DNA from: an uncultured archaeon
GTDB lineage: Archaea; Asgardarchaeota; Thorarchaeia; Thorarchaeales; Thorarchaeaceae
Direction of reading: 5' to 3'
Assembly: GCA_964631415.1 (NCBI GenBank)
Contig: CAZVZC010000001.1
Span: forward strand, 80,260 to 144,259
DNA length: 64,000 bases
Made by a program: the position numbers and the translations under genes. A model generated the notes under the pieces. That model searched no databases and was not told the DNA's origin. It was given only the letters and a program-made list of their open reading frames with translations. The first letter of the stretch is position 1, and every line of letters begins with the position of its first letter. Below are positions 13,397-24,663 of the stretch, in pieces.

Positions 13397-14112
13397 CTAG
13401 CCCTCACATGCGGCTTGACCCCTTCTGAGGGCTTCTCCGTTTCTTCGGGCGGAGGCACTAGCTTGACCCATATCACGCTCTTCTTGTCCATCCAGAGGTC
13501 AATGAATGCTCTAGCATAGAGATGCAGCAATGAGAAGAAGATGCGAACTATCTCTCTTCGCGTGTTATTGACCAGTAGGTCAGTGAACCTGACGACTTCG
13601 CCCACTTTGACAATCTTCCAGATGTCCGCATACACCTCAGCGATGGTTTCCTCGATGTTCACCCGGGACGTATCCATGCTGAAAGATAGGGGTTCTGCCT
13701 CTGACCTTCTGTATCGCGACTGAGGAATTGGCCGCTCTCTTATGCCCTTGCTCAGGACTCGGTCCATTGCCATGAGTAGTTCCTGCAGGGTCACTCTTCT
13801 GTTTGTAAGTCTGAAAGGCGGTAGTATCTGGGGGATTGCAAGTTCCTCTTCCTCCTCGTCTACTTCGGGAGGAATCAGGCCGAGTTCCACGAGGTCTCTG
13901 GTCTTCTTCATGAAGATGACTGATGCAGAGTAGAGAGCATTTCCTGAAACTCGGAAGTCAATGTCCCCCATTCTTCTCATTTCTTGCAGAAAGCTTGCAA
14001 CGAGCTTCCCGACATCCACGTTCCAAGGTTCGATGTTGTCCAGCTGAAGGACATCGGTCAGGAGGATGTAGGGTGGCGAGGCCCAGAAAGGCGTATCATC
14101 ACTCGTGCTCAC
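13393..14112 (-). CDS. scpA: Segregation and condensation protein A (kleisin ScpA)
   Basis: 'PWNVDVGKLVASFLQEMRRM...FRVSGNALYSASVIFMKKTRDL'. Sits in an operon with smc and scpB. Confidence 0.8.
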   Translation of the reverse strand: MSTSDDTPFWASPPYILLTDVLQLDNIEPWNVDVGKLVASFLQEMRRMGDIDFRVSGNALYSASVIFMKKTRDLVELGLIPPEVDEEEEELAIPQILPPFRLTNRRVTLQELLMAMDRVLSKGIRERPIPQSRYRRSEAEPLSFSMDTSRVNIEETIAEVYADIWKIVKVGEVVRFTDLLVNNTRREIVRIFFSLLHLYARAFIDLWMDKKSVIWVKLVPPPEETEKPSEGVKPHVRAR

Positions 14113-17100
14113 GCTGACTCAGCCACCTCCTGAAGGTCCACTGAAACTATTCTGGATATGCCATCTTGGTTTGACACACCAATGAGCATGTCAGCTTTTC
14201 GTACTGTGGTATCCCTGAGCGACACAACTATGAACTGAGAGTTCTTGGACATCTCTGATATCAACAATGCAACGTTGTGCGCATTGACGTCGTCCAAGGC
14301 TGCATCTATCTCATCAAAGACATAGAAGCTTGCGGGGTTGTGCATCTGGATGGCGAAGATCAGTGCCAAGCCGGTGAGTGTCTTTTCCCCGCCGCTCATC
14401 GCATCAAGAGAAACCAGCTCTTTGCCTGCAGGCTTGGACCTGACAGTGATGCCTCCCATCAATGGATGTTCGGCGTTCTCTAGCATCAGGTTGGCCTCGC
14501 CGCCAGGTGATAGCTTGGTAAAAACCTTCGAGAAGTTGTCCGCTATGCTGTTGTATACCTGAAGGAACTTCTGAGTCTTCTCCTTCTCTAGCTCCTCCAT
14601 GAAGGACAGTATCTCTTTGTGTTCCTTCTCAAGCTGTGTCTTCTTCTCGACAATTTCGTCGTATCTTCCCTTTTCAGTGTCATAGTCTGTGAGCGACTTC
14701 AAGTTGACTGGACCCATTGCCTCGAGTTCTCTCTCAATCTCTTTGATATTCTCTTCGAGGTCCTCAATTGCTTTGGCAGTCAGCTCACGTTGTCCTGCTC
14801 TCTTCTCAAGCTCTGTTTCCACGTCGGTCACTGCACCAAGCTGAGCAGTTAGTCCGACCAGATCGGTTTCCAGACGTGAGCGTTCTACTTGGAGCCTGTA
14901 GACCGCTTTCTCATTTCCGGTCTGCGACTCCTTGATCTCTTCCTGCTTCAGCCTAAGGTTTCTGATGGTTTCCTTCAGTTTCAGCTGCCGTACTCGCTTA
15001 TCCTTGACTGCCGTGTCAATCTGTTCCCTCTCCGACTTCAGTTTGAGAAAATCGCTTTCTTTTGCCCTGAGGTCGGCCTCAATAGATGTAGCATCCTCTT
15101 CCAGACTCGGCAATACTGCCTCCAGTGACGCGATTCGGTGTTCCAGTTCTACTGACTTGGGCAAGTATCTCTCTTGAATCGAAACTCTCAGTGCGGAGGT
15201 CTCGGTCCGAATCCTCTCGTGGTTTCGCTTGTGCTGTTCCAGGACCTCCTTCAGATCTCTCAGGTCCTGATTCAGCTTGGCCGTACCTGACTTTGCCAGT
15301 ATTTCGTTGCACTGGTCTCTCTGTTCTCTGACTCTCTCTCTCTGAGCAGTGAGCTCCTCATCTCGAGTCCTGAGCTCAGATATCTGTCGCTCCAGTTCCT
15401 CAATCGTGACTCTTGCCTTGTCTATCTTCTCTTTCAGTTTCTGTGCTTTTTGCTCCCTGTCCCTGAGTTTCTCCTCCAAGCCCTTCAGTTCCAGCCCGTC
15501 CCTGTAATTCCGCTTAGAAATTTCTTCAATCTCACGGTCAAGTGCCTTTTTCCTGCCCAAGAACTCCTCCTGCTGTTCTTGCAGCTCAGACAGGATGTCC
15601 TCAAGGCCCTTGAGGCGTGAAATCACGTCTGGGCTCGTGTCCTCCTCTTGAAGTGAGAGACCCGTTGAATCTCTATGGAAGTGTCCTCCAGTGATCAGCC
15701 CCGAGCGTTCTACCAAGTCACCCTCCAACGAAACCGCTCTACAGTTGTCGAAACCCATGGCCTTTGCGGTATCGAAGTCCTTAGTCACAAGTGTGTCCGA
15801 GAATACGAATTCAAAGGCAGGACGCATCTTTGGGTCAAAGGTCACAAGGTCCAGTGCATAGCCTATCACACCCTCTTTCTGTGGCTTCCGACTCGGTCTT
15901 CGTGTCTTTATCCTGTTGAGTGGGATGAACGAGGCCCGTCCTACTCGCTCTTTCTTAAGCACATCAATACATCGAGTGGCCACATCCTCATTCTTTACGA
16001 CTATGTGGGACAGCCTGTTACCCGCCGCCACTTGCATGGCTGTAGCATAGTCGGGGTCTATTACTCCCAGTTCTGCTACTGTACCGTAGACCCCGTCAAT
16101 CTCTCCCTTGTCACGTAGTTCAAGCACTCTGGCCAAGGCTCTCCGGCGTTTCAAGAACGCCTCTTCGGCCTCTCTCAATGCATCCTGACGAGCCTGCAGC
16201 TTAATGAGTTCTTCCTTTGTCGAGGTAACGAGCTTGCTGCTCTCACTCACCTGCGCGTCCACTGTGGTAAGTTGCCTCTCAGTGTCCTCAAGTTCCTGCC
16301 GCCTTGCCACTTCGGACTCCTGTAGTCTTTGAAGGGCTGTAGTCTTTGCCGGAACGATGGAGCCGAGTTCTGACAGTTCCTCGTCTGTCTTCTTCAGGGA
16401 ATCCTCAGCATCGCGTAACTCCTCATATGTGAGCCCCAGTTCCTTACTATCTGATTTGATGGTAGACCTGATTTCAGTCACACCCTCATCGAGGTGCGCC
16501 ATCTGTGTGTTGAGGTCCTGAAGCCTTAGAGTGGCTTCATAGTATGCAGACTGCTCTCTTTCAAGAAGACCATCGAGTCGTGCGATGTCAGTTGAACATC
16601 CTAGGATCTCCTTGTCAAGACTCTCAAGACCGAGCTCCTTCTCCTTGATTGCATACTCCGCAGCGGTCATCTGGTCTTTCGTGGAACCTAGTTGCTTCTC
16701 AAGTGTGTCCCGTTCTTGTCTGGTTCTGTCATAATCACTCTTCGCACGATCCAGTTTGCTCCGGAAGTGTTCAACTTCTGCAGTCATGGTACCATACTGC
16801 TCAGAAACCCTTGAGGCGTTTCCACCGGTTATCAGGTCAATCTCCTGTTCTATCTCTTCAATCTCAGACTCGGTCTTGGCCATGTCTGCTTCGACCTTGG
16901 TCAGCTGCTTGGCAAACCTCTCAGCGTCTGCGGCTCGATCCGCAAGTGTTTCGTCTATCGTACTCGTCCGGTTCTTGGACTTGATGACTGTCCAAGTCAC
17001 GCTCTCGATCTTGGTCTGCTGTATCTGATCACGTAGACCCGTGTAGCGGAGGGCGTCCTTCCTTTCTGCTTCCAGCCGCTCCAGCTGGTGACGACGTTCT

Positions 17101-17699
17101 TGGAGCTGCGTTTCGACCTTGCCTAGGTTGGTTTCACTCTCTGCGAGCTTCTTGAGCGCCTTCTCTTTCTGCTCGTCATAGGCTGATATGCCTGCAATCT
17201 CCTCAATGAGCTTCCGTCGTTCGATCGGGCTGACTTTGACCATCTGGGCAATCTCGCCTTGGAGTACAAGATTGTAGCCATTTGGGTCAACGCCTATGCC
17301 GCCGAGGATATCTATCACGGCCGCACGGGTGACCATCTTGCCGTTTATCCTGCAGACTGACTTACCAGACTCGTCCAGCTCTCTCTCAACAACGACTCTG
17401 TCGGCATCGATTTGCAGTTTTCTGTCCCTGTTGTTGAAGCAAAGCTCTACAACGGCCGACTTGGCCTTTGGAGGCATGTCTGGCTTGGGAGGACTATAGA
17501 GCAGCTCCGAGAAGACATTCGCACGCAATGTCTTGGCACTCAGCTGCCCAAGCACAAAGAGAATCGCATCAATGACATTAGACTTGCCTGACCCGTTCGG
17601 CCCGACGATACAGGTGAAGCCAGGACTGAGGTTAATCGTGACGGTGTCCCGGCCAAATGACTTGAAGCCTTTGCATACTAGCTTCTCGATGTGGACCAA
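14109..17699 (-). CDS. smc: Chromosome segregation ATPase SMC
   Basis: 1196 aa with Walker A 'GPNGSGKSN', long coiled coils, a hinge, signature 'LSGGEKTL' and Walker B 'FYVFDEIDAALD'. Confidence 0.95.
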   Translation of the reverse strand: MVHIEKLVCKGFKSFGRDTVTINLSPGFTCIVGPNGSGKSNVIDAILFVLGQLSAKTLRANVFSELLYSPPKPDMPPKAKSAVVELCFNNRDRKLQIDADRVVVERELDESGKSVCRINGKMVTRAAVIDILGGIGVDPNGYNLVLQGEIAQMVKVSPIERRKLIEEIAGISAYDEQKEKALKKLAESETNLGKVETQLQERRHQLERLEAERKDALRYTGLRDQIQQTKIESVTWTVIKSKNRTSTIDETLADRAADAERFAKQLTKVEADMAKTESEIEEIEQEIDLITGGNASRVSEQYGTMTAEVEHFRSKLDRAKSDYDRTRQERDTLEKQLGSTKDQMTAAEYAIKEKELGLESLDKEILGCSTDIARLDGLLEREQSAYYEATLRLQDLNTQMAHLDEGVTEIRSTIKSDSKELGLTYEELRDAEDSLKKTDEELSELGSIVPAKTTALQRLQESEVARRQELEDTERQLTTVDAQVSESSKLVTSTKEELIKLQARQDALREAEEAFLKRRRALARVLELRDKGEIDGVYGTVAELGVIDPDYATAMQVAAGNRLSHIVVKNEDVATRCIDVLKKERVGRASFIPLNRIKTRRPSRKPQKEGVIGYALDLVTFDPKMRPAFEFVFSDTLVTKDFDTAKAMGFDNCRAVSLEGDLVERSGLITGGHFHRDSTGLSLQEEDTSPDVISRLKGLEDILSELQEQQEEFLGRKKALDREIEEISKRNYRDGLELKGLEEKLRDREQKAQKLKEKIDKARVTIEELERQISELRTRDEELTAQRERVREQRDQCNEILAKSGTAKLNQDLRDLKEVLEQHKRNHERIRTETSALRVSIQERYLPKSVELEHRIASLEAVLPSLEEDATSIEADLRAKESDFLKLKSEREQIDTAVKDKRVRQLKLKETIRNLRLKQEEIKESQTGNEKAVYRLQVERSRLETDLVGLTAQLGAVTDVETELEKRAGQRELTAKAIEDLEENIKEIERELEAMGPVNLKSLTDYDTEKGRYDEIVEKKTQLEKEHKEILSFMEELEKEKTQKFLQVYNSIADNFSKVFTKLSPGGEANLMLENAEHPLMGGITVRSKPAGKELVSLDAMSGGEKTLTGLALIFAIQMHNPASFYVFDEIDAALDDVNAHNVALLISEMSKNSQFIVVSLRDTTVRKADMLIGVSNQDGISRIVSVDLQEVAESA

Positions 17700-17893: not shown

Positions 17894-18301
17894 CTATGAC
17901 TTGACCATCAACATGAGCGCGCGCTTGAGCGCGATTCTGAGAAGGCCCATTGACTCTTTCGCGCCTTCTCCGGCGATTGCAGCAAGGACGAGTTGGACAT
18001 CACCCAAGACTATGACATATCCCTTGTCCGACGCTATACTAATCTCCTTTAGAATGCCCTTGTCAACCGCCGTGACTAGTTGCGACGAGTTCGCAGATAT
18101 CTTGGCGATTAATGCTGCAACGTCTGTGTGTTTGATTCCAGCCGTAACGGTGTGACCGAACAACACCTTGCCCTTATCATCACAAACCACAATGCCCTGT
18201 ATGTCAGCATTTGCCGCCATGGTCTGTGCCACGACTGACTCTATCTTGGCCTTGTCCACCATCGTGACAGTCCTCCGAAGATTTTCACCCGCTGTCATCA
18301 T
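17894..18301 (-). CDS. Roadblock/LC7 (MglB-like) domain protein, paralogue 1
   Basis: 'IQGIVVCDDKGKVLFGHT...DVAALIAKISANSSQL...GYVIVLGDVQLVLAAIAGEGA' fits the Roadblock pattern. Start is placed at ATG 18301/18298 because the ATATAAA TATA box lies about 22 nt upstream, suggesting a leaderless transcript. Confidence 0.75.
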   Translation of the reverse strand: MMTAGENLRRTVTMVDKAKIESVVAQTMAANADIQGIVVCDDKGKVLFGHTVTAGIKHTDVAALIAKISANSSQLVTAVDKGILKEISIASDKGYVIVLGDVQLVLAAIAGEGAKESMGLLRIALKRALMLMVKS

Positions 18302-18319
18302 GTAGAGGTCTCTGAGATG

Positions 18320-18326
18320 TTTATAT
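18320..18326 (-). promoter_or_regulatory. TATA-box candidate for Roadblock paralogue 1
   Basis: The minus strand reads ATATAAA centred about 22-25 nt upstream of the tandem ATGs at 18301/18298. Confidence 0.45.
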
Positions 18327-18579
18327 CTTCTGTGCTGACATCTCGCTATGACAGAGTTATCCTCACACTCCACTTATGACGATGCTACGACCGTTCAGTG
18401 TGAGTTGGATGAAGTCGGACACAGGAGTTTTTCCATCCAGAGCCGGCACTTCGGCTGTACATCCTACTTGCCTGTTAAGTCCGTGGTTCCTCAGTGTACA
18501 GAAGCGGAAACATCAGCAATTGACTTAAAGCACAATGGGCCGCATCTGATTAGTGATAGTCTTCTGAGGGATAGTATCG

Positions 18580-20205
18580 ATGCCCATGCTTAGAACCAGT
18601 TCAGAGGCCTTTCCAGCCTCGAAAGACATGATCAGTGAAATTCCATATGTCCTGCGTGTTGAGTTTAGAGACCTCGCACGCGACGTAACAAGAATCACAG
18701 GAATGCCAATCGCATGCCACAAATGTAACGGCTTTCTGATGAGCGTCGACCAGATTGTTGAGGACAGGAAGATCGGGAAGCACTTTGTCTGCCCCTTCTG
18801 TGGCACCTTGAATGTGATTGCAGGTGAAGTGGTCTTTGCCGGCTCAGACACGGATTTCGTCATCAAGCCAGCTCCCGACAAGACCGAAACCACTACAGTC
18901 GCGTCTGCTGGCGGTAGGTCATTCTTGGCCGTGATTGATGTATCCGGCTCAATGGCTGGGGCCAATCTGGCAGCAGTGAAGAGGAGTCTGACCACCTCTG
19001 TTGAGAGCCTAGTCGCGAACACTCCCGATACGCTCTTCGGGTTGATCGAGTTTGAGAGTTCTGTTCTGTTTCGCAATATGGAAACGGGCGAAGCCGTGCA
19101 GCTTCCAAGAGAGTCCTTTGCGAGCTTCGAGGCTATCACTGAAGCCGCACGAAAACTCATGGACAGAATCAAGCTTGTCAAGGTGGGTGGAAATGCTGGC
19201 ACTCTAAAGCGTCACATCAATGCCCTGAGAGAGCAGGGTGGGACCGCTCTTGGCCCTGCGGTAGCCATGGCGTGTATGATTGCCAAGCACCGAGGTGTAG
19301 GCAGGGTGATTCTTCTTACTGACGGACTTGCGAACGAAGGCATTGGCGCTCTTGAGGGCTACCAAGTCACTCCTGGAAACAAGTACTATGAAGACCTAGG
19401 ACGTCTGTTCAAAGACAATGGCACAGCGATCGATGTAGTTGGAATCGCCACTGGTGCAGGAATGGAGCTGAGAACACTGGGCCTGATGCCAGAGGCCACC
19501 GGTGGCCAGATGTACTATGTCACGCCAAATGAACTCGACAAGAGCCTGTCAGAGCTAGCGGGAGCATCGCTGCTCGGTCGCGATGTTCAAGTCCGACTTC
19601 TTACTCCGGTAGGCGTGAAGGTCAAGGACGCTTCAGGAATATCAAGGGCCGTTGTGGAAGAACTCAGGACGAAGAGCGAGAGCAAGATAGGGGTCGTGGG
19701 TGAGAATCACGAGCTCTATTTTGAGGTGGAGCCCGAGAGCAAGCTCAAAGCCAAGGAAGTCCCCATCCAAGTGCAGGTGGAGTACACTGACCAAGATGGG
19801 TCCAGACGGATGCGTACTTTCACCAAGAAGCTGCGGGTCACTTCAGATGAGAAGGAGCTCGTGAAGACAATGGACCCGACCATCGGCGCCACTTTCGTTG
19901 TTCAGAAGGCTGGAGAGGAGGCCCTAGGCGGCGGTCGTGCCGCCGGCATGACTCGGATTGCCAGTTTCAGGGCTGCAATGAAGGAGAAGGCCAAGGCCGC
20001 ACCGGCGCCAGTACAGGCGAAGCTGCAGAGGGCCGATGATGCGCTTGCCTCCGAAGAGGAGAACATGGAACGCCAGGAAGCAGCAGTGGGCGGTGCGCGA
20101 CCGGGGGCACCATCAGCCGCAGCCGATCAAGCAGTCACCGAGAACTTGGCCCAAATGAGAAAAGCGTCCAAGGCGCTCTTTCACGACGAAGAGGATGAGA
20201 AGTAG
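18580..20205 (+). CDS. Sec23/24-like protein: Zn-finger, vWA 'trunk', beta-barrel, then a disordered acidic tail; no gelsolin domain
   Basis: Zn-finger 'CHKCNGFL-x17-CPFCGTLN'. Trunk/MIDAS 'SFLAVIDVSGSMAG...LFGLIEFESSV...GGTALGPAV...RVILLTDG...YYEDLGRLFKDNGTAIDVVGIA...ATGGQMYYV'. Barrel 'ELYFEVEPES...IQVQVEYTDQDGSRRMRTFT'. These are colinear with the human SEC23A motifs as I remember them. Confidence 0.65.
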   Translation: MPMLRTSSEAFPASKDMISEIPYVLRVEFRDLARDVTRITGMPIACHKCNGFLMSVDQIVEDRKIGKHFVCPFCGTLNVIAGEVVFAGSDTDFVIKPAPDKTETTTVASAGGRSFLAVIDVSGSMAGANLAAVKRSLTTSVESLVANTPDTLFGLIEFESSVLFRNMETGEAVQLPRESFASFEAITEAARKLMDRIKLVKVGGNAGTLKRHINALREQGGTALGPAVAMACMIAKHRGVGRVILLTDGLANEGIGALEGYQVTPGNKYYEDLGRLFKDNGTAIDVVGIATGAGMELRTLGLMPEATGGQMYYVTPNELDKSLSELAGASLLGRDVQVRLLTPVGVKVKDASGISRAVVEELRTKSESKIGVVGENHELYFEVEPESKLKAKEVPIQVQVEYTDQDGSRRMRTFTKKLRVTSDEKELVKTMDPTIGATFVVQKAGEEALGGGRAAGMTRIASFRAAMKEKAKAAPAPVQAKLQRADDALASEEENMERQEAAVGGARPGAPSAAADQAVTENLAQMRKASKALFHDEEDEK

Positions 20206-20393
20206 ATTCCGAATGAGTCCTCTCTTTCAGAGAACCGCGCACTTCATCGCGAGATGGGTTTGTCCGGATCCGTGAGGTGTGCGGCCCCTCTTGCCAGCCA
20301 GAACATTGGCGCGGTCCGTTATCAGAATGCGCAATTGGTCCGTTGAGAAGACCCTGTTGCCACAAGTCTCAAATACCCAAGCGTGGGGTAGGA

Positions 20394-20732
20394 ATGCTAA
20401 ATGCACAATTGACAGCAGCGGGGATTCTACAGTTGGTTAGCCAAGACAAGCTCCGGTCGATTCTCTCTAAGATCAAGGCGCAAGGAGGAGTCCGAGGAGT
20501 TGTGGTCACAAATATGGAGGGCTTGCCACTTAGCAGCGATCTAGACCCCGAAACGACTGAAGCTGTCGCCGCCATCATAACCTCCCTCGTGGGCAAGGCA
20601 CTTGATGCAGTGAGAGAACTCCGAGAGGGGTCTCTGTCATTCCTGACCCTCGACACATCTAAGGGTCAGATTAACATAGCACCCGATGTGAAAGAGGGGT
20701 TAATACTAGTAGTCCTGAAGAAACCGAGCTGA
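20394..20732 (+). CDS. Roadblock/LC7 domain protein, paralogue 2
   Basis: 'VRGVVVTNMEGLPLSSDLDPETTEAVAAIITSLVGKA...LSFLTLDTSKGQINIAP...LILVVL'. Start is placed at ATG 20394. The upstream part of the tracked ORF is Cys/Pro-rich and implausible. Confidence 0.75.
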   Translation: MLNAQLTAAGILQLVSQDKLRSILSKIKAQGGVRGVVVTNMEGLPLSSDLDPETTEAVAAIITSLVGKALDAVRELREGSLSFLTLDTSKGQINIAPDVKEGLILVVLKKPS

Positions 20733-20747
20733 AAGGAGAACGATGAC

Positions 20748-21215
20748 ATGAGCGATCCAAAGGTCTTCGACAAGATCCTCACTGAGATCATCCGCCAAGA
20801 CAAGGGCATAAAGAAGGTAATCCTTGTAGACAAGACTGGGCTGACAATCGCAAATGTCAGCAAGCTCAGCTACTTCCCGATTGACACAGATTCGATAGGC
20901 GCGATTGCGAGCGCGGTGTTTTGCGCCAGCGAGGAACAGGGGAAGAACCTACAGATCGGAGAGCTTGAGATTGTTACCTCTGAGTTCTCAGAAGGTAAGA
21001 TATTCGCCTCTGCATGCGGCAAGGGTGTCCTGTGTGTTGTTTCCGAGTCCGAGGTGAACATTGGCCTCATCCGGCTCATCATGAAGAAGCAGGGTGTTCA
21101 GCTCGCAGAAGAGTTGGAGAAGTTCTTGGCAGTCGAACCCACAGCACCGTCAAAGGGCAAGGAGCTGGACGAAGAGGATCTGAAGTCTGCTCTGGCAGAG
21201 CTCGAAAAGGTATGA
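20748..21215 (+). CDS. Roadblock/LC7 domain protein, paralogue 3, with an acidic C-terminal helix
   Basis: 'IKKVILVDKTGLTIANVS...IGAIASAVFCASEEQGKNL...GKIFASACGKGVLCVVSESEVNIGLI'. It starts 15 nt after paralogue 2. Confidence 0.75.
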   Translation: MSDPKVFDKILTEIIRQDKGIKKVILVDKTGLTIANVSKLSYFPIDTDSIGAIASAVFCASEEQGKNLQIGELEIVTSEFSEGKIFASACGKGVLCVVSESEVNIGLIRLIMKKQGVQLAEELEKFLAVEPTAPSKGKELDEEDLKSALAELEKV

Positions 21216-21462
21216 GCCCGCGCTGGTCGCCGGAACTGACCTGTCAACTCAGCTCTTGTCTACTTAACGGACAAAGGCTTTTATGAGAGTACAATGTTAC
21301 CACAGCCAGTTACCCGATTTGGGATGCCCGGCTCGGGGACTGATACTTGGCTCTCAGAGCATGAGAATTGCCCGGTGGTACGTACTCTCACACTGGTGGT
21401 GTTTCTGCGCCACCATGGCAGGGACAGTCCACAAGAACAACATAGCACCGAGGTGTTGAAAC

Positions 21463-22026
21463 GTGCGCAAGGATGACAAGGGCAGGATTCATCTCAAGCT
21501 GGTTTTCTATGGCCCGAGCCTAGGCGGCAAGACGACTGCGCTACGTTGGCTGTACGGAAAGGTTGAGGGTCTCCAGAAGGGAGAGTTTACAGCAATCGAA
21601 GATGAAACAAACCGAACCCTGTTCTTTGACTACGTACCTATGAGCGCGGGAGGTCGTGTCCTCTTTGACGTGTTCACCGTCGCAGGACAGAAGCGACACA
21701 GGCATCAGAGGAAGGTTGTGCTCCAAGGGACTGACGGGATACTGTTCGTTGCGGACTCATCTCCCGACCAGCGAGAGGAGAATGTTGAGAGCTTCGAGGA
21801 ATTGAAGCTGTTCTTAGGTGATGTATTGGGCCGTGATATTCCCATTGTAGTCATGCTGAACAAGCGTGACCTGCCCAACAGGATGTCTCGTGATGAGATG
21901 CTTGATCTACTGGGACTCGGTGGCAACGTACCGATCTACGAAACCATCGCCGTTCAGGGCGTAGGAGTTAAGAGAGCCTTCCAGGCCATAGCACGGGAAG
22001 TCATCCTTAAGAGAATGTACAAGTGA
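21463..22026 (+). CDS. MglA-type small Ras-superfamily GTPase
   Basis: G1 'GPSLGGKTT', switch-I Thr in 'NRTLFFDY', G3 'FTVAGQ' (Thr in place of the Ras Asp, as in MglA), G4 'NKRD' and G5-like 'ETIAVQG'. GTG start. Confidence 0.8.
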   Translation: MRKDDKGRIHLKLVFYGPSLGGKTTALRWLYGKVEGLQKGEFTAIEDETNRTLFFDYVPMSAGGRVLFDVFTVAGQKRHRHQRKVVLQGTDGILFVADSSPDQREENVESFEELKLFLGDVLGRDIPIVVMLNKRDLPNRMSRDEMLDLLGLGGNVPIYETIAVQGVGVKRAFQAIAREVILKRMYK

Positions 22027-22036
22027 ATGCACCTAG

Positions 22037-22417
22037 GTGAGTCTGATGAGCGAGTCGCGGGGCGATACACTCGAGGGAGTCCTGAACGAGCTGCAAGGCA
22101 GTATTCCTGAGATTGAGGCCTGTGCCATAGTGAGTGTTGAGGGGCTTCCGATAGTTTCAGCCCTGCCAACCGACGTTGATGAGGCGAAGCTCGCAGCGAT
22201 AACAGCAGCGATGTTGACACTGGGTGAAAAAGCAGCGGTCGAACTGGGAAAGGGCAATCTTGAACAGGTCAATGTGAAGGGTGTCAATGGTTGGATACTT
22301 GTGATTCAGGCGGGGATGAACGCATGCCTCACAGTGTCAACCACAGCCAATGCGAAGCTTGGTCTTGTATTCCTTGACATGAAACGAGCTGCAGAGAAGG
22401 TAGCCCAACTCATCTGA
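22037..22417 (+). CDS. Roadblock/LC7 (MglB-like) domain protein, paralogue 4
   Basis: 'IEACAIVSVEGLPIVSALPTDVDEAKLAAITAAMLTLGEKA...GWILVIQAGMNACLTVSTTANAKLGLVFLDM'. It starts 10 nt after the GTPase stop. Confidence 0.8.
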   Translation: MSLMSESRGDTLEGVLNELQGSIPEIEACAIVSVEGLPIVSALPTDVDEAKLAAITAAMLTLGEKAAVELGKGNLEQVNVKGVNGWILVIQAGMNACLTVSTTANAKLGLVFLDMKRAAEKVAQLI

Positions 22418-22506: not shown

Positions 22507-23274
22507 TTGAACTTCGCCGGGCCGGTGTACAGGCTCTATGAATACTGGCTGTACAAGCAGCTGAGTAAAGAGAAGGCGCCTCGACATGTAGGCATAATAC
22601 TCGACGGTAATCGTCGCTATGCTCGTGAGCATGGTTTCGACGTGCCATGGATGGGGCATCACAAGGGCGCACAGAAAGTCATGGAGGTCCTGCGGATTCT
22701 CTGGGAGGCCGGTGTTAAGGTGTGCACGCTCTATGCCTTCTCAGTTGAAAACTTCCAGAGGAGCAATGAAGAGGTCAAAGAGATAATGACAATCGCCCGG
22801 AAGAAGTTCGCTGATGTCATTGGCAACCCAGATGTTCACAAGCACAAGGTCCGTATCAAGGCCATTGGTCGGGTTGACCTCTTGCCCCCAGAGGTAGCGG
22901 AGGCAATCCACAAGGCCGAGGCCGAAACTGAGAAGTACACTGATCATATCCTGAATGTCGCCATTGGATACTCGGGGAGAGCTGAGCTGGTAGATGCAGT
23001 CAGGGCCATCGGCCAGATGATCAAGGCCGGAGAGATATCTCCCTCTGATGTGGACGAGCAAGTGATTGAGAGTCACCTGTACACTAATGGAGTCCCGGAC
23101 CCGGACCTCATAATCCGAACATCCGGCGAAGAAAGGCTCTCGGGCTTCCTTCTTTGGCAGTCTGCTTATTCAGAGCTGTACTTTGCACAGGTATACTGGC
23201 CTGCAGTGAGGCGCATTGACATCTGGCGGGCCTTGCGGTCATACGAACTACGTTCTCGCAGATTCGGCAAGTGA
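22507..23274 (+). CDS. uppS: cis-prenyltransferase (undecaprenyl/di-trans,poly-cis-polyprenyl diphosphate synthase)
   Basis: 'PRHVGIILDGNRRYAREHG' and 'IRTSGEERLSGFLLWQSAYSELYF'. TTG start; there is no ATG before the catalytic motif. Confidence 0.9.
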   Translation: MNFAGPVYRLYEYWLYKQLSKEKAPRHVGIILDGNRRYAREHGFDVPWMGHHKGAQKVMEVLRILWEAGVKVCTLYAFSVENFQRSNEEVKEIMTIARKKFADVIGNPDVHKHKVRIKAIGRVDLLPPEVAEAIHKAEAETEKYTDHILNVAIGYSGRAELVDAVRAIGQMIKAGEISPSDVDEQVIESHLYTNGVPDPDLIIRTSGEERLSGFLLWQSAYSELYFAQVYWPAVRRIDIWRALRSYELRSRRFGK

Positions 23275-23412: not shown

Positions 23413-24663
23413 ATGGCTTTGGTCAGGACTCCAATCGAAGTCTACAGAGGGCTGGTCCGGACGCATCTTGGTGACGAGTTGCCAACACACCTTAGGGCTG
23501 TCACTGATCGATTCTCAGAGGGAACATTCGCTGGTCAGAGCACATCAGGCCACTTGACGAGACTCCTGACATTGTTCTGTCGGTTCATGGCATACCTTGA
23601 CTCTAGAGAAGTCGCCAACTTATCCGATCTCACTCGCGCAGTAGACTTGCTTGATTACTTCGCATCGACCTCTAAGTGGTGGTCAATAACAAGAAAGGCG
23701 CCTGGGCTAGTGCTTAGGCCGCCATCACATGACCCGCATGAATTCATGGAATCTCTTGCCGCTGTCCAGCTTGGCAACGAAACGCTTAGTCGTATCGCTG
23801 GCTCTACCGAGAAAATGTCACAGTACCTAGAAGAGCATGGCATAGCTGAGTCACGCACTAAATCCGATTTGTGTGAGAGTTTCGCCTCAGTCTGGGCGGT
23901 CATGAGCGCAATCGTTTCGAAGAGTCAGGGACGCACTGTAACCTCAGAGAACGACTTCGAAGTGGGATATGATGTGATTCGGGTGCTGTTGTTCTACAGC
24001 TCAGTCGATGACTTCAAGGCGTTGACTGCCATCCGAACTGTGGGCACGAACCCCAAGATGCATCGAGCTGCGGGCGTGTCCTTGGCACCCGGTTTCGAAC
24101 GAAAGCTGGACTCTTCGGCGATAGCTCGACTCGAACGGCTACACGGCGAGAGTCTGTCGAAGCTCGCAGGATTGACGTCGGGAGCCGGCCGTTCCATTCT
24201 CACAAACTCCCTCCGGTTTCTTGCTCAGCAGCTGGCAGTAGAGCGGGCTTTCATGAAAGTTGAGGAGCAAAGCTATGAATCTACGATAGCAGCAGCATTA
24301 GTTGCGCTCAGGAATGTCGGCATTCCATCTGGGCTCTTTCAGGAGGAGTCTGCAGTAGTCAGCCTCTTCAAGAGCCTCAAACCCTCAGATGATATCGGGG
24401 AGCGAATCGGTTTCCTGATGAGACGTTTCGAAGGCCTGATTGCTGACTCCGCAGGCAGTCGTGAGTTTCTGCTGCAGCATTCTCGGCTGGTACCTCAGCT
24501 GGTTTCATTGCTGCTACTTCTCGCTTCTGGGACTAAGCCGAAGCTTGAGGGCGGGCTCCAAGATCCCGACCTAAAGAGAGGCCTGATTCTGCTTGAGCAA
24601 CTGCTCAACGACTTGGGCTCTGTGTCTTCTTTGTCTCCTCAATCAGAATTCTCGCATCGATGA
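23413..24663 (+). CDS. Hypothetical protein, predicted all-alpha, no recognisable motif
   Basis: 416-aa ORF with coding-like composition and helix-favouring Leu/Ala/Glu/Arg-rich sequence. No catalytic, TM or metal motifs. Its 3' end overlaps acdB by 59 nt. Confidence 0.5.
   Translation: MALVRTPIEVYRGLVRTHLGDELPTHLRAVTDRFSEGTFAGQSTSGHLTRLLTLFCRFMAYLDSREVANLSDLTRAVDLLDYFASTSKWWSITRKAPGLVLRPPSHDPHEFMESLAAVQLGNETLSRIAGSTEKMSQYLEEHGIAESRTKSDLCESFASVWAVMSAIVSKSQGRTVTSENDFEVGYDVIRVLLFYSSVDDFKALTAIRTVGTNPKMHRAAGVSLAPGFERKLDSSAIARLERLHGESLSKLAGLTSGAGRSILTNSLRFLAQQLAVERAFMKVEEQSYESTIAAALVALRNVGIPSGLFQEESAVVSLFKSLKPSDDIGERIGFLMRRFEGLIADSAGSREFLLQHSRLVPQLVSLLLLLASGTKPKLEGGLQDPDLKRGLILLEQLLNDLGSVSSLSPQSEFSHR

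Follow-up and report, generated by a model that had tools for sequence, protein, structure and literature searches.

The window analysed here is a stretch of 64,000 nucleotides (nt) from an uncultured Asgard archaeon of the family Thorarchaeaceae (assembly GCA_964631415.1, contig CAZVZC010000001.1, positions 80,260 to 144,259). It carries a gene for a small GTPase of the MglA family together with four genes for Roadblock-domain proteins, designated RB1 to RB4, in the order RB2-RB3-mglA-RB4 on one strand with a divergent RB1 upstream (Table 1). With moderate confidence, the cluster is read as the Thorarchaeota copy of an ancient, Asgard-wide MglA/MglB-type switch module with accessory Roadblock dimers, a reading built on the observed family membership, gene order, conservation and promoter motif. 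Near-identical loci were found in metagenome-assembled genomes of Thorarchaeota.

The motifs and closest matches of the GTPase place it in the MglA family and not in Arf, Sar or Rab. The motifs are G1 GPSLGGKT (residues 17-24), R51-T52 in switch I, G3 T72-V-A-G-Q76 and G4 NKRD (133-136); the G1 and G4 motifs as well as R51, T52, T72, A74, G75 and Q76 are invariant across 16 Asgard orthologues. Replacement of the Ras Asp by Thr in G3 (TxxGQ) defines MglA, and the change of Thr78 to Asp abolishes its function (PMC3000849). In a phmmer search of all PDB chains four MglA entries of Myxococcus xanthus and Thermus thermophilus (6hjh, 6h17, 5ymx and 3t12) ranked first, with E ~1e-38 and 136 bits over residues 8-182. 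Arf was the next family (51 bits, 1e-12 for Arf4), Rab7, Sar1 and KRas scored ~35 bits, and the Arf/Sar1 matches lay 85-100 bits below the MglA match. The original prediction, which had taken the Thr of TVAGQ as the MglA hallmark, is upheld by this difference and by the conservation of R51 and Q76. The protein shares 42 % identity with M. xanthus MglA; it aligns without gaps from G1 to G2 and is four residues shorter between G2 and G3, and in the phmmer alignment to 6hjh as well as in the pairwise one R51 and Q76 fall on Arg53, the intrinsic Arg finger, and on the catalytic Gln82. It is a single G domain lacking the C-terminal Roadblock domain of the Rag/Gtr type. It also departs from Sar1 and Arf, having only 9 residues before the first strand, with no N-terminal amphipathic helix, and Thr in G3 instead of DxxG(Q/H). 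Roadblock genes lie within four genes of it, RB3 247 nt upstream and RB4 10-19 nt downstream.

In the 2014 survey of Wuichet and Sogaard-Andersen, Group 1 MglA proteins, with an Arg in G2 and the G3 sequence TVPGQ, were found in bacteria only, and the archaeal MglAs had GTPGQ and no such Arg (PMC4316618). A maximum-likelihood tree of 48 sequences, weakly supported at its deep nodes, placed M. xanthus MglA and the other bacterial TVPGQ proteins in one clade (support 99/96). The Asgard proteins and one labelled Korarchaeota fell outside it. The window GTPase was placed beside this clade among Jordarchaeia and other Asgard TVAGQ sequences and far from the Rab-like GTPases of its own genome; the phylogenetic placement that had been proposed as a check thus put it with the Asgard MglA-type proteins. 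Since its G3 reads TVAGQ and not the exact Group 1 consensus TVPGQ, and since it branches outside the bacterial Group 1 clade, the sequence data identify Asgard MglA as a Group 1-like archaeal lineage rather than a member of bacterial Group 1. With its weak deep nodes, the tree is compatible with vertical descent and with an ancient transfer alike.

Other MglA-like proteins were noted in passing. One is a Korarchaeota MglA-like protein (49 % identical). The window's own genome also has two longer paralogues of MglA (identities 51 and 39 %), in open frames of 307 and 264 amino acids (aa) (C11:20254-21174 and C14:38614-39405), the second 0.7 kb from a 320-aa Roadblock-domain protein (C14:40129-41088), as well as a 255-aa protein with two tandem Roadblock matches (C3:79041-79805). 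Most of the 50 %-identity representatives matching MglA at E<1e-30 (P0251-P0388) are 300-760 aa long and have an N-terminal TVPGQ MglA domain followed by a long C-terminal extension.

The distribution of the module was established by a profile search for MglA (E<=1e-45) in 301 Asgard genomes of 30 families; one locus per family was then examined and its open reading frames (ORFs) scored with hidden Markov models (HMMs) built from each Roadblock orthogroup. (Sampled families are numbered f1, f2 and so on, fetched loci L010 and so on, and G000 is the window's own genome.) An MglA orthologue was present in 270 of the 301 genomes, in 29 of the 30 families and in 82 of 90 high-quality genomes. RB2-RB3-mglA-RB4 is contiguous and co-oriented in nine families (f1, f2, f7, f8, f12, f13, f15, f16 and f19); in f4 RB4 is inverted and in f18 the cluster is cut short by a contig end, so that the cluster recurs in at least 11 of the 30 families. 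RB3-mglA-RB4 is also present in f22 and in Heimdall and Hodarchaeales loci. The RB1 orthogroup was detected in f2, f4, f8, f12, f15, f16 and f19, and is divergent upstream of the cluster in six cluster families. In the families with the full cluster the best HMM exceeded the second by ~45-240 bits, hence the four Roadblocks are distinct orthogroups. The original prediction had regarded four Roadblock paralogues in one place as unusual; this did not hold, since four ancient orthologous groups keep their order across many Asgard families. A locus labelled Thermoproteota (L086) was considered as an instance outside Asgard and rejected, as it belongs to an Asgard family of the genome set.

Within Thorarchaeota, the protein identities (Table 1) mark MglA as by far the most constrained product of the neighbourhood, indicative of strong purifying selection. 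The spacers there are short: mglA and RB4 are separated by a median of 7 nt (at most 18 nt in 69 of 73 loci), RB2 and RB3 by 10-32 nt, and RB4 and the following gene for undecaprenyl/dehydrodolichyl diphosphate synthase (UPPS) by a median of 74 nt. Judged by gene order and orthology, the cluster is an ancient gene module spread across Asgard and not a quirk of the window genome. MglA-like GTPases and Roadblocks of Asgard archaea were already known (PMC10933270), as was a modelled Thorarchaeota MglA/MglB pair (PMC13408092); no description of the conserved multi-Roadblock operon, of its near-universality or of the promoter split in Thorarchaeota was found in the searchable literature. The module is thus a real, partly described regulatory system. 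As a separate observation, UPPS directly follows RB4 in f2, f8, f12, f13 and f15 (L146, L148, L153, L154 and L159) and lies nearby in f4, f14, f19 and f25, an adjacency suggesting that the GTPase module may be transcribed together with a gene for lipid-carrier synthesis.

By sequence comparison and structure modelling RB3 is the best candidate for the MglB of this system, although the call is tentative and RB3 is MglB-like by best match rather than by a curated threshold. The choice rests on its top PDB matches, its C-terminal helix and a gene order identical to that of bacterial mglBA. The top matches are M. xanthus MglB chains (6izw_B, 6h5b_B and 6hjm_A, 8e-7, residues 13-149), followed by LAMTOR2, and the alignment to 6izw_B extends to MglB residue 157, that is into the C-terminal tail. 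The AlphaFold2 model (mean predicted local distance difference test, pLDDT, 74.8) has a Roadblock fold of alpha-beta-beta-alpha-beta4-alpha topology, then a disordered linker of low confidence (130-139) and a helix (142-154) beyond the Roadblock core. The C-terminal motif (E/D)LKxAL.ELE(K/R)(V/F) is kept from Thorarchaeota to Heimdall and Hodarchaeales. In f2, f8, f13, f15 and f16 a spacer of 4-16 nt separates RB3 from the mglA gene that follows it, as against 247 nt in the window. In M. xanthus the operon is mglBA, and an MglB partner was recognised as the ORF directly preceding mglA (PMC3000849). The original prediction had called a GTPase gene followed by a Roadblock gene the classical mglA-mglB arrangement and had taken the downstream Roadblock, RB4, for MglB; the bacterial order is the reverse, and RB4 matches MglB only at E 0.1, so that the upstream RB3 is the more MglB-like of the two.

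Several results weigh against this assignment, or against a fixed MglA/MglB pair. The sequence match of RB3 to MglB is modest (E ~1e-6), and the Thermus-type MglB equivalog model of NCBIfam (NF052242) gave RB3 20.2 bits against a cut-off of 200; altogether the NCBIfam scan yielded no usable family assignment. In a Foldseek search of RB3, LAMTOR2 (the top match), MglB and Roadblock3 of the culturable model MK-D1 were inseparable, all at ~1e-9. An AlphaFold 3 model has been published for one Thorarchaeota MglA/MglB pair, in which the C-terminal helix is reportedly not predicted to contact the GTPase (PMC13408092); the Roadblock in that pair may not be RB3. In f5, f14, f25 and f26 an RB2-like gene is directly upstream of mglA, with no RB3 nearby, and in ~12 families, including Lokiarchaeia, mglA stands alone within 4.5 kb. 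Because of these last two arrangements, the Roadblock partner of MglA may not be fixed.

The four Roadblocks share only 15-27 % identity with one another and lie within 4524 nt (17894-22417), in line with the four distinct paralogues in 4.5 kb first noted. RB1 is divergent: it scored 22.4 bits (E 1e-4) with Pfam Robl_LC7, just below the cut-off of 23, and matched a Roadblock in PDB (9jq8_A) at 3.5e-8; its orthologue in a close relative is called at 122 aa. RB2 is of the short architecture, with no C-terminal helix, and matched Robl_LC7 at 9e-16, LAMTOR5 with 29.4 bits (cut-off 27), Odin-RBLC7 (7f8f) at 1.2e-23 and human DYNLRB1 at ~1e-13. For RB3 the Pfam Roadblock match was 6.8e-11 and that to MAPKK1_Int (LAMTOR3) 31.8 bits (cut-off 25). 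Both RB2 on LAMTOR5 and RB3 on MAPKK1_Int score higher on the generic Robl_LC7 model. RB4 lacks a C-terminal extension and matched Robl_LC7 at 6.7e-17, Thor-RB (7f8m) at 2.5e-24, MK-D1 Roadblock3 (9jue) at 1.7e-17 and CvnB5 (3leq) at 1e-6. The RB4 ORF, taken from GTG 22037, begins 10 nt after the mglA stop, as had been reported. Translation probably starts instead at the in-frame ATG 22046, which lies behind the Shine-Dalgarno sequence AGGTGA (22035-22040) and would yield a product of 123 aa, as called in the close relative; the real spacer is then 19 nt. All the other elements named in the original prediction were recovered where it had placed them.

The junction between RB3 and mglA differs from the rest of the cluster. 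The upstream gap, described earlier as 247 nt without an obvious ORF, has exactly this length; tRNA and Rfam scans of the window gave no match in it, and its single mechanical ORF (60 aa, 21294-21476) is not considered a gene because conservation of the gap does not extend beyond very close relatives. Across the loci of the Thorarchaeota family RB3 and mglA are 51-3925 nt apart (median 242), with more than 400 nt between them in 23 of 69 loci. Since the inserts are unrelated genes, frequently on the opposite strand, and the distances so variable, the sequence comparison identifies the junction as a hotspot of insertion at which, in this family alone, the operon is broken. The inserted genes include a ClC-type channel-like gene, a methyltransferase with a TetR-like regulator and a 390-aa protein of no assigned function, a Cys-rich zinc-ribbon protein and membrane proteins (L014:4073-8000, L036:4222-8000, L051:457-3763, L067:2858-5923 and other Thorarchaeota loci). 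The insert of L024 is flanked on both sides, at positions 552 and 2611, by a copy of the mglA promoter, leader and first codons.

Whatever the upstream insert, mglA is accompanied by a conserved element, (C/G)(C/G)ACAAAGGCTTTTAT(G/T)AGAC, which looks like a promoter composed of a transcription factor B recognition element (BRE) and a TATA box. Its 12-mer core occurs singly, on the + strand, 70-260 nt upstream of mglA in ~50 of ~75 Thorarchaeota loci. The copy in the window, ACAAAGGCTTTTATGAGA, is unique there at up to 3 mismatches, with 0.02 occurrences expected. Downstream of the element, a CCC-N3-10-GGG hairpin was present in 30 of 51 distinct leaders, as compared with 3.2 in mononucleotide shuffles, which is weak evidence for a stem-loop because the leaders are related; that of the window has a minimum free energy of -19.5 kcal/mol. 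The Shine-Dalgarno sequence GAGGTG is kept in nearly all Thorarchaeota loci. The codon aligned to the mglA start is GTG in the window and ATT, ATA, TTG or ATG in other Thorarchaeota (window 21450-21465, L010-L085), and starts as weak or unusual as these may hold down the amount of MglA. A GTG in frame within the Shine-Dalgarno sequence leads to a 190-aa call in many genomes. Since this junction is broken and bears a promoter-like element while the other junctions are tight, separate transcription of mglA is plausible, as had been suggested from the gap alone. The likely transcription units are (Sec23/24-like)-RB2-RB3 and mglA-RB4(-UPPS).

In the favoured reading, MglA would bind GTP and hydrolyse it with its own Arg finger R51 and with Gln76, and a dimer of RB3 would bind MglA-GTP as a GTPase-activating protein (GAP), by analogy with Thermus and Myxococcus, its C-terminal helix being available for a second, allosteric contact. 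RB1, RB2 and RB4 would form accessory Roadblock dimers that dock on MglA/RB3 or connect this core with partners, much as bacterial MglC docks onto MglB. A precedent for such layered dimers is the RomR/MglC/MglB complex, in which two Roadblock homodimers are parted by MglA-GTP (PMC10329633). RB2-RB3-mglA-RB4(-UPPS) has the dense packing of a single operon in most Asgard families; in the Thorarchaeota family the junction between RB3 and mglA has opened, and mglA-RB4 has a promoter-like element of its own. We infer the binding partners, any GAP or guanine nucleotide exchange activity and the process served, which could be polarity or membrane/envelope organisation.

The original prediction had instead led to a scheme with RB4 as the MglB-equivalent GAP and RB1-RB3 as obligate heterodimers building a Ragulator-like scaffold. 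RB4 is indeed the gene most tightly linked to mglA, RB2 and RB3 exceed the Pfam cut-offs for LAMTOR5 and LAMTOR3, a short and a long Roadblock are adjacent, resembling the split between LAMTOR4/5 and LAMTOR2/3, and LAMTOR2 leads the Foldseek matches of RB3. However, RB4 has neither a significant MglB match nor the C-terminal extension, all solved Asgard Roadblocks (PMC10933270; 9jue is titled a homodimer) as well as MglB and MglC (PMC10329633) are homodimers, MglA has no Rag-type Roadblock domain, and the called neighbour genes of the cluster included no candidate for a LAMTOR1-like wrapping subunit. The scheme as a whole is considered unlikely; a Ragulator-like heteromeric Roadblock scaffold as such is possible. 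Still less credit is given to the view that the Roadblocks have other cellular GTPases as their partners and stay near mglA only because the SMC...UPPS region rearranges slowly. The window genome has ~12 small GTPases and ~11 Roadblock domains, the functionally unrelated SMC and UPPS genes are likewise conserved neighbours, and the GTPases of MK-D1 are generally not in operons with Roadblocks (PMC10933270), a statement that the lone mglA of Lokiarchaeia fits. Yet spacers of 4-32 nt on a common strand point to co-transcription, the gene order persists despite frequent insertions between RB3 and mglA, and 390 of 449 small MglA members in 1,611 genomes were coupled to a Roadblock gene (PMC4316618).

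The product of 18580-20205 is identified by its sequence as the known Thorarchaeota Sec23/24-like protein (Pfam Sec23_trunk 1.3e-9, Sec23_BS 7.5e-8, zf-Sec23_Sec24 1.8e-3). Asgard proteins of this kind are reported to have no gelsolin domain and to show no GTP-dependent binding of an Asgard Arf (PMC11914678). Its position raises the idea of a primitive coat/cargo machine in which MglA would act as Sar1 and a Roadblock dimer as the GAP replacing the Sec23 gelsolin domain: with a built-in Arg finger, which MglA has, and a Roadblock GAP, the missing gelsolin/Arg-finger domain would be unnecessary. In at least 34 Thorarchaeota-family genomes with both genes on one contig, the Sec23/24-like gene precedes mglA by 2.4-6 kb in the same orientation, and wherever it was present at the locus in this family it was between RB1 and RB2. 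Against this, it was present in only 48 of 76 family genomes and not found in 28, several of them at least 96 % complete; it is missing at the RB1-RB2 site in the close relative L010, in L064, L080 and L083, and outside the Thorarchaeota family. The Sec23/24-like genes of f2, f9, f16, f19, f24 and f27 are elsewhere, with no Roadblock nearby, so an association with Roadblocks or MglA in other Asgard families was tested and rejected; MglA also lacks the N-terminal amphipathic helix. In the f9 genome G030 a GTPGL-type small GTPase with a C-terminal extension ends 33 nt before the Sec23/24-like gene (L133:7261-7962), and Rab-like GTPases lie 0.7-4 kb from it in f9 and f27, with ~4 kb in the f27 genomes, which is compatible with chance because each genome has many GTPases. 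By its distribution the adjacency is one lineage-specific event in a single family, and thus a lead to a partner GTPase rather than evidence for one. That the Thorarchaeota Sec23/24-like protein has the MglA-Roadblock module as its own GTPase system is improbable, and a coat machine of this type is equally doubtful; if true, it would be a working pre-eukaryotic coat-recruitment switch.

Table 1. Features of the MglA-Roadblock neighbourhood in the window, with the median identity of each product to the window protein in 69-76 Thorarchaeota loci
Feature	Position	Strand	Remarks	Median identity
SMC	14109-17699	-		65.4 %
RB1, divergent Roadblock	17894-18262	-	122 aa from conserved Met (ORF extends to 18373); adjoins SMC, divergently oriented	65.8 %
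Sec23/24-like	18580-20205	+	zinc finger, trunk/vWA, beta-sandwich; between RB1 and RB2	68.6 %
RB2, short Roadblock	20394-20732	+	dynein-light-chain/LAMTOR5 type (RBLC7)	80.1 %
RB3, MglB-like Roadblock	20748-21215	+	155 aa; flexible linker and conserved C-terminal helix	89.7 %
RB3-mglA gap	21216-21462		247 nt	
BRE/TATA-like conserved element	21271-21288	+	upstream of mglA	
GC-rich stem-loop, predicted	21307-21342	+	in putative mglA 5' leader	
Shine-Dalgarno GAGGTG	21450-21455	+	7 nt before mglA GTG start	
MglA-family small GTPase	21463-22026	+	187 aa; GTG start; stop TGA 22024-22026	96.8 %
RB4, full-length generic Roadblock	22037-22417	+	likely ATG 22046 (123 aa); close behind mglA	87.9 %
UPPS	22507-23274	+	Pfam Prenyltransf 6.5e-77	77.6 %
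416-aa gene, no family assignment	23413-24663	+		
ADP-forming acetyl-CoA synthetase, two subunits	after the 416-aa gene	-		

Beyond UPPS, the 416-aa gene is kept at the same place in Thorarchaeota (median identity 49 %). Its AlphaFold2 model is a confident all-alpha fold (pLDDT 87.9, predicted template modelling score 0.87), for which no significant structural match in PDB (Foldseek best E 0.16) and no Pfam or NCBIfam match were found. In Heimdall and Hodarchaeales a 415-416-aa TPR protein adjoins the RB3-mglA...Roadblock locus (L092:7729-8979 and L095:7628-8875, both on the - strand; copies 55 % identical); its identity with the window gene was rejected, there being no homology (E 1.0).

The eukaryotic Ragulator-Rag, TRAPP and dynein light-chain assemblies are built on Roadblock dimers and small GTPases as their core. 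On the origin of such multi-Roadblock platforms, the gene set described here offers one GTPase and four Roadblock candidates for a joint test. The set is near-universal in Asgard and strongly conserved, MglA being ~97 % identical across the sampled Thorarchaeota species genomes, and the Arg-finger MglA, which in 2014 seemed confined to bacteria, belongs to the core genes of Asgard archaea. The culturable MK-D1 is unsuited to such a test because its mglA stands alone.

The closest known system is bacterial MglA/MglB of M. xanthus and T. thermophilus (Group 1), with which the window shares a single-domain GTPase with Thr in G3, the Arg finger and the catalytic Gln, a co-oriented upstream Roadblock gene with a C-terminal helix (RB3) and, when the accessory MglC is counted, further Roadblock paralogues. 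Unlike its bacterial counterparts, the window MglA is archaeal, has TVAGQ in place of TVPGQ and four fewer residues between G2 and G3, and stands outside the bacterial clade; its cluster has three extra Roadblocks, and the organism is not known to glide. 'MglA bacterial-like GTPases' of Asgard archaea have been noted before (PMC10933270, PMC13408092), and the proteins of Tran et al. 2024 (PMC10933270) come from the same group of organisms, RB2 being near Odin-RBLC7 and RB4 related to the solved Thor-RB and MK-D1 Roadblock3. Those proteins were treated singly, whereas the cluster RB1|RB2-RB3-mglA-RB4 is not described in the literature searched. With Ragulator (LAMTOR1-5) and Rag the window has in common several short (LAMTOR4/5-like) and long (LAMTOR2/3-like) Roadblocks near a small GTPase, together with Pfam matches of RB2 and RB3 that exceed the LAMTOR cut-offs but stay below their Robl_LC7 scores. 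It differs in its MglA-type GTPase, which has no Roadblock domain, and in the lack of a LAMTOR1-like gene among the called neighbours. The actinobacterial conservons (CvnA-D) and archaeal Group 4/5 MglA likewise combine a Roadblock and an MglA-family GTPase in one operon, and RB4 matches the conservon protein CvnB5. Their GTPases, in contrast, have GTPGQ and no Arg finger, and the cluster described here includes no sensor kinase or DUF742 gene.

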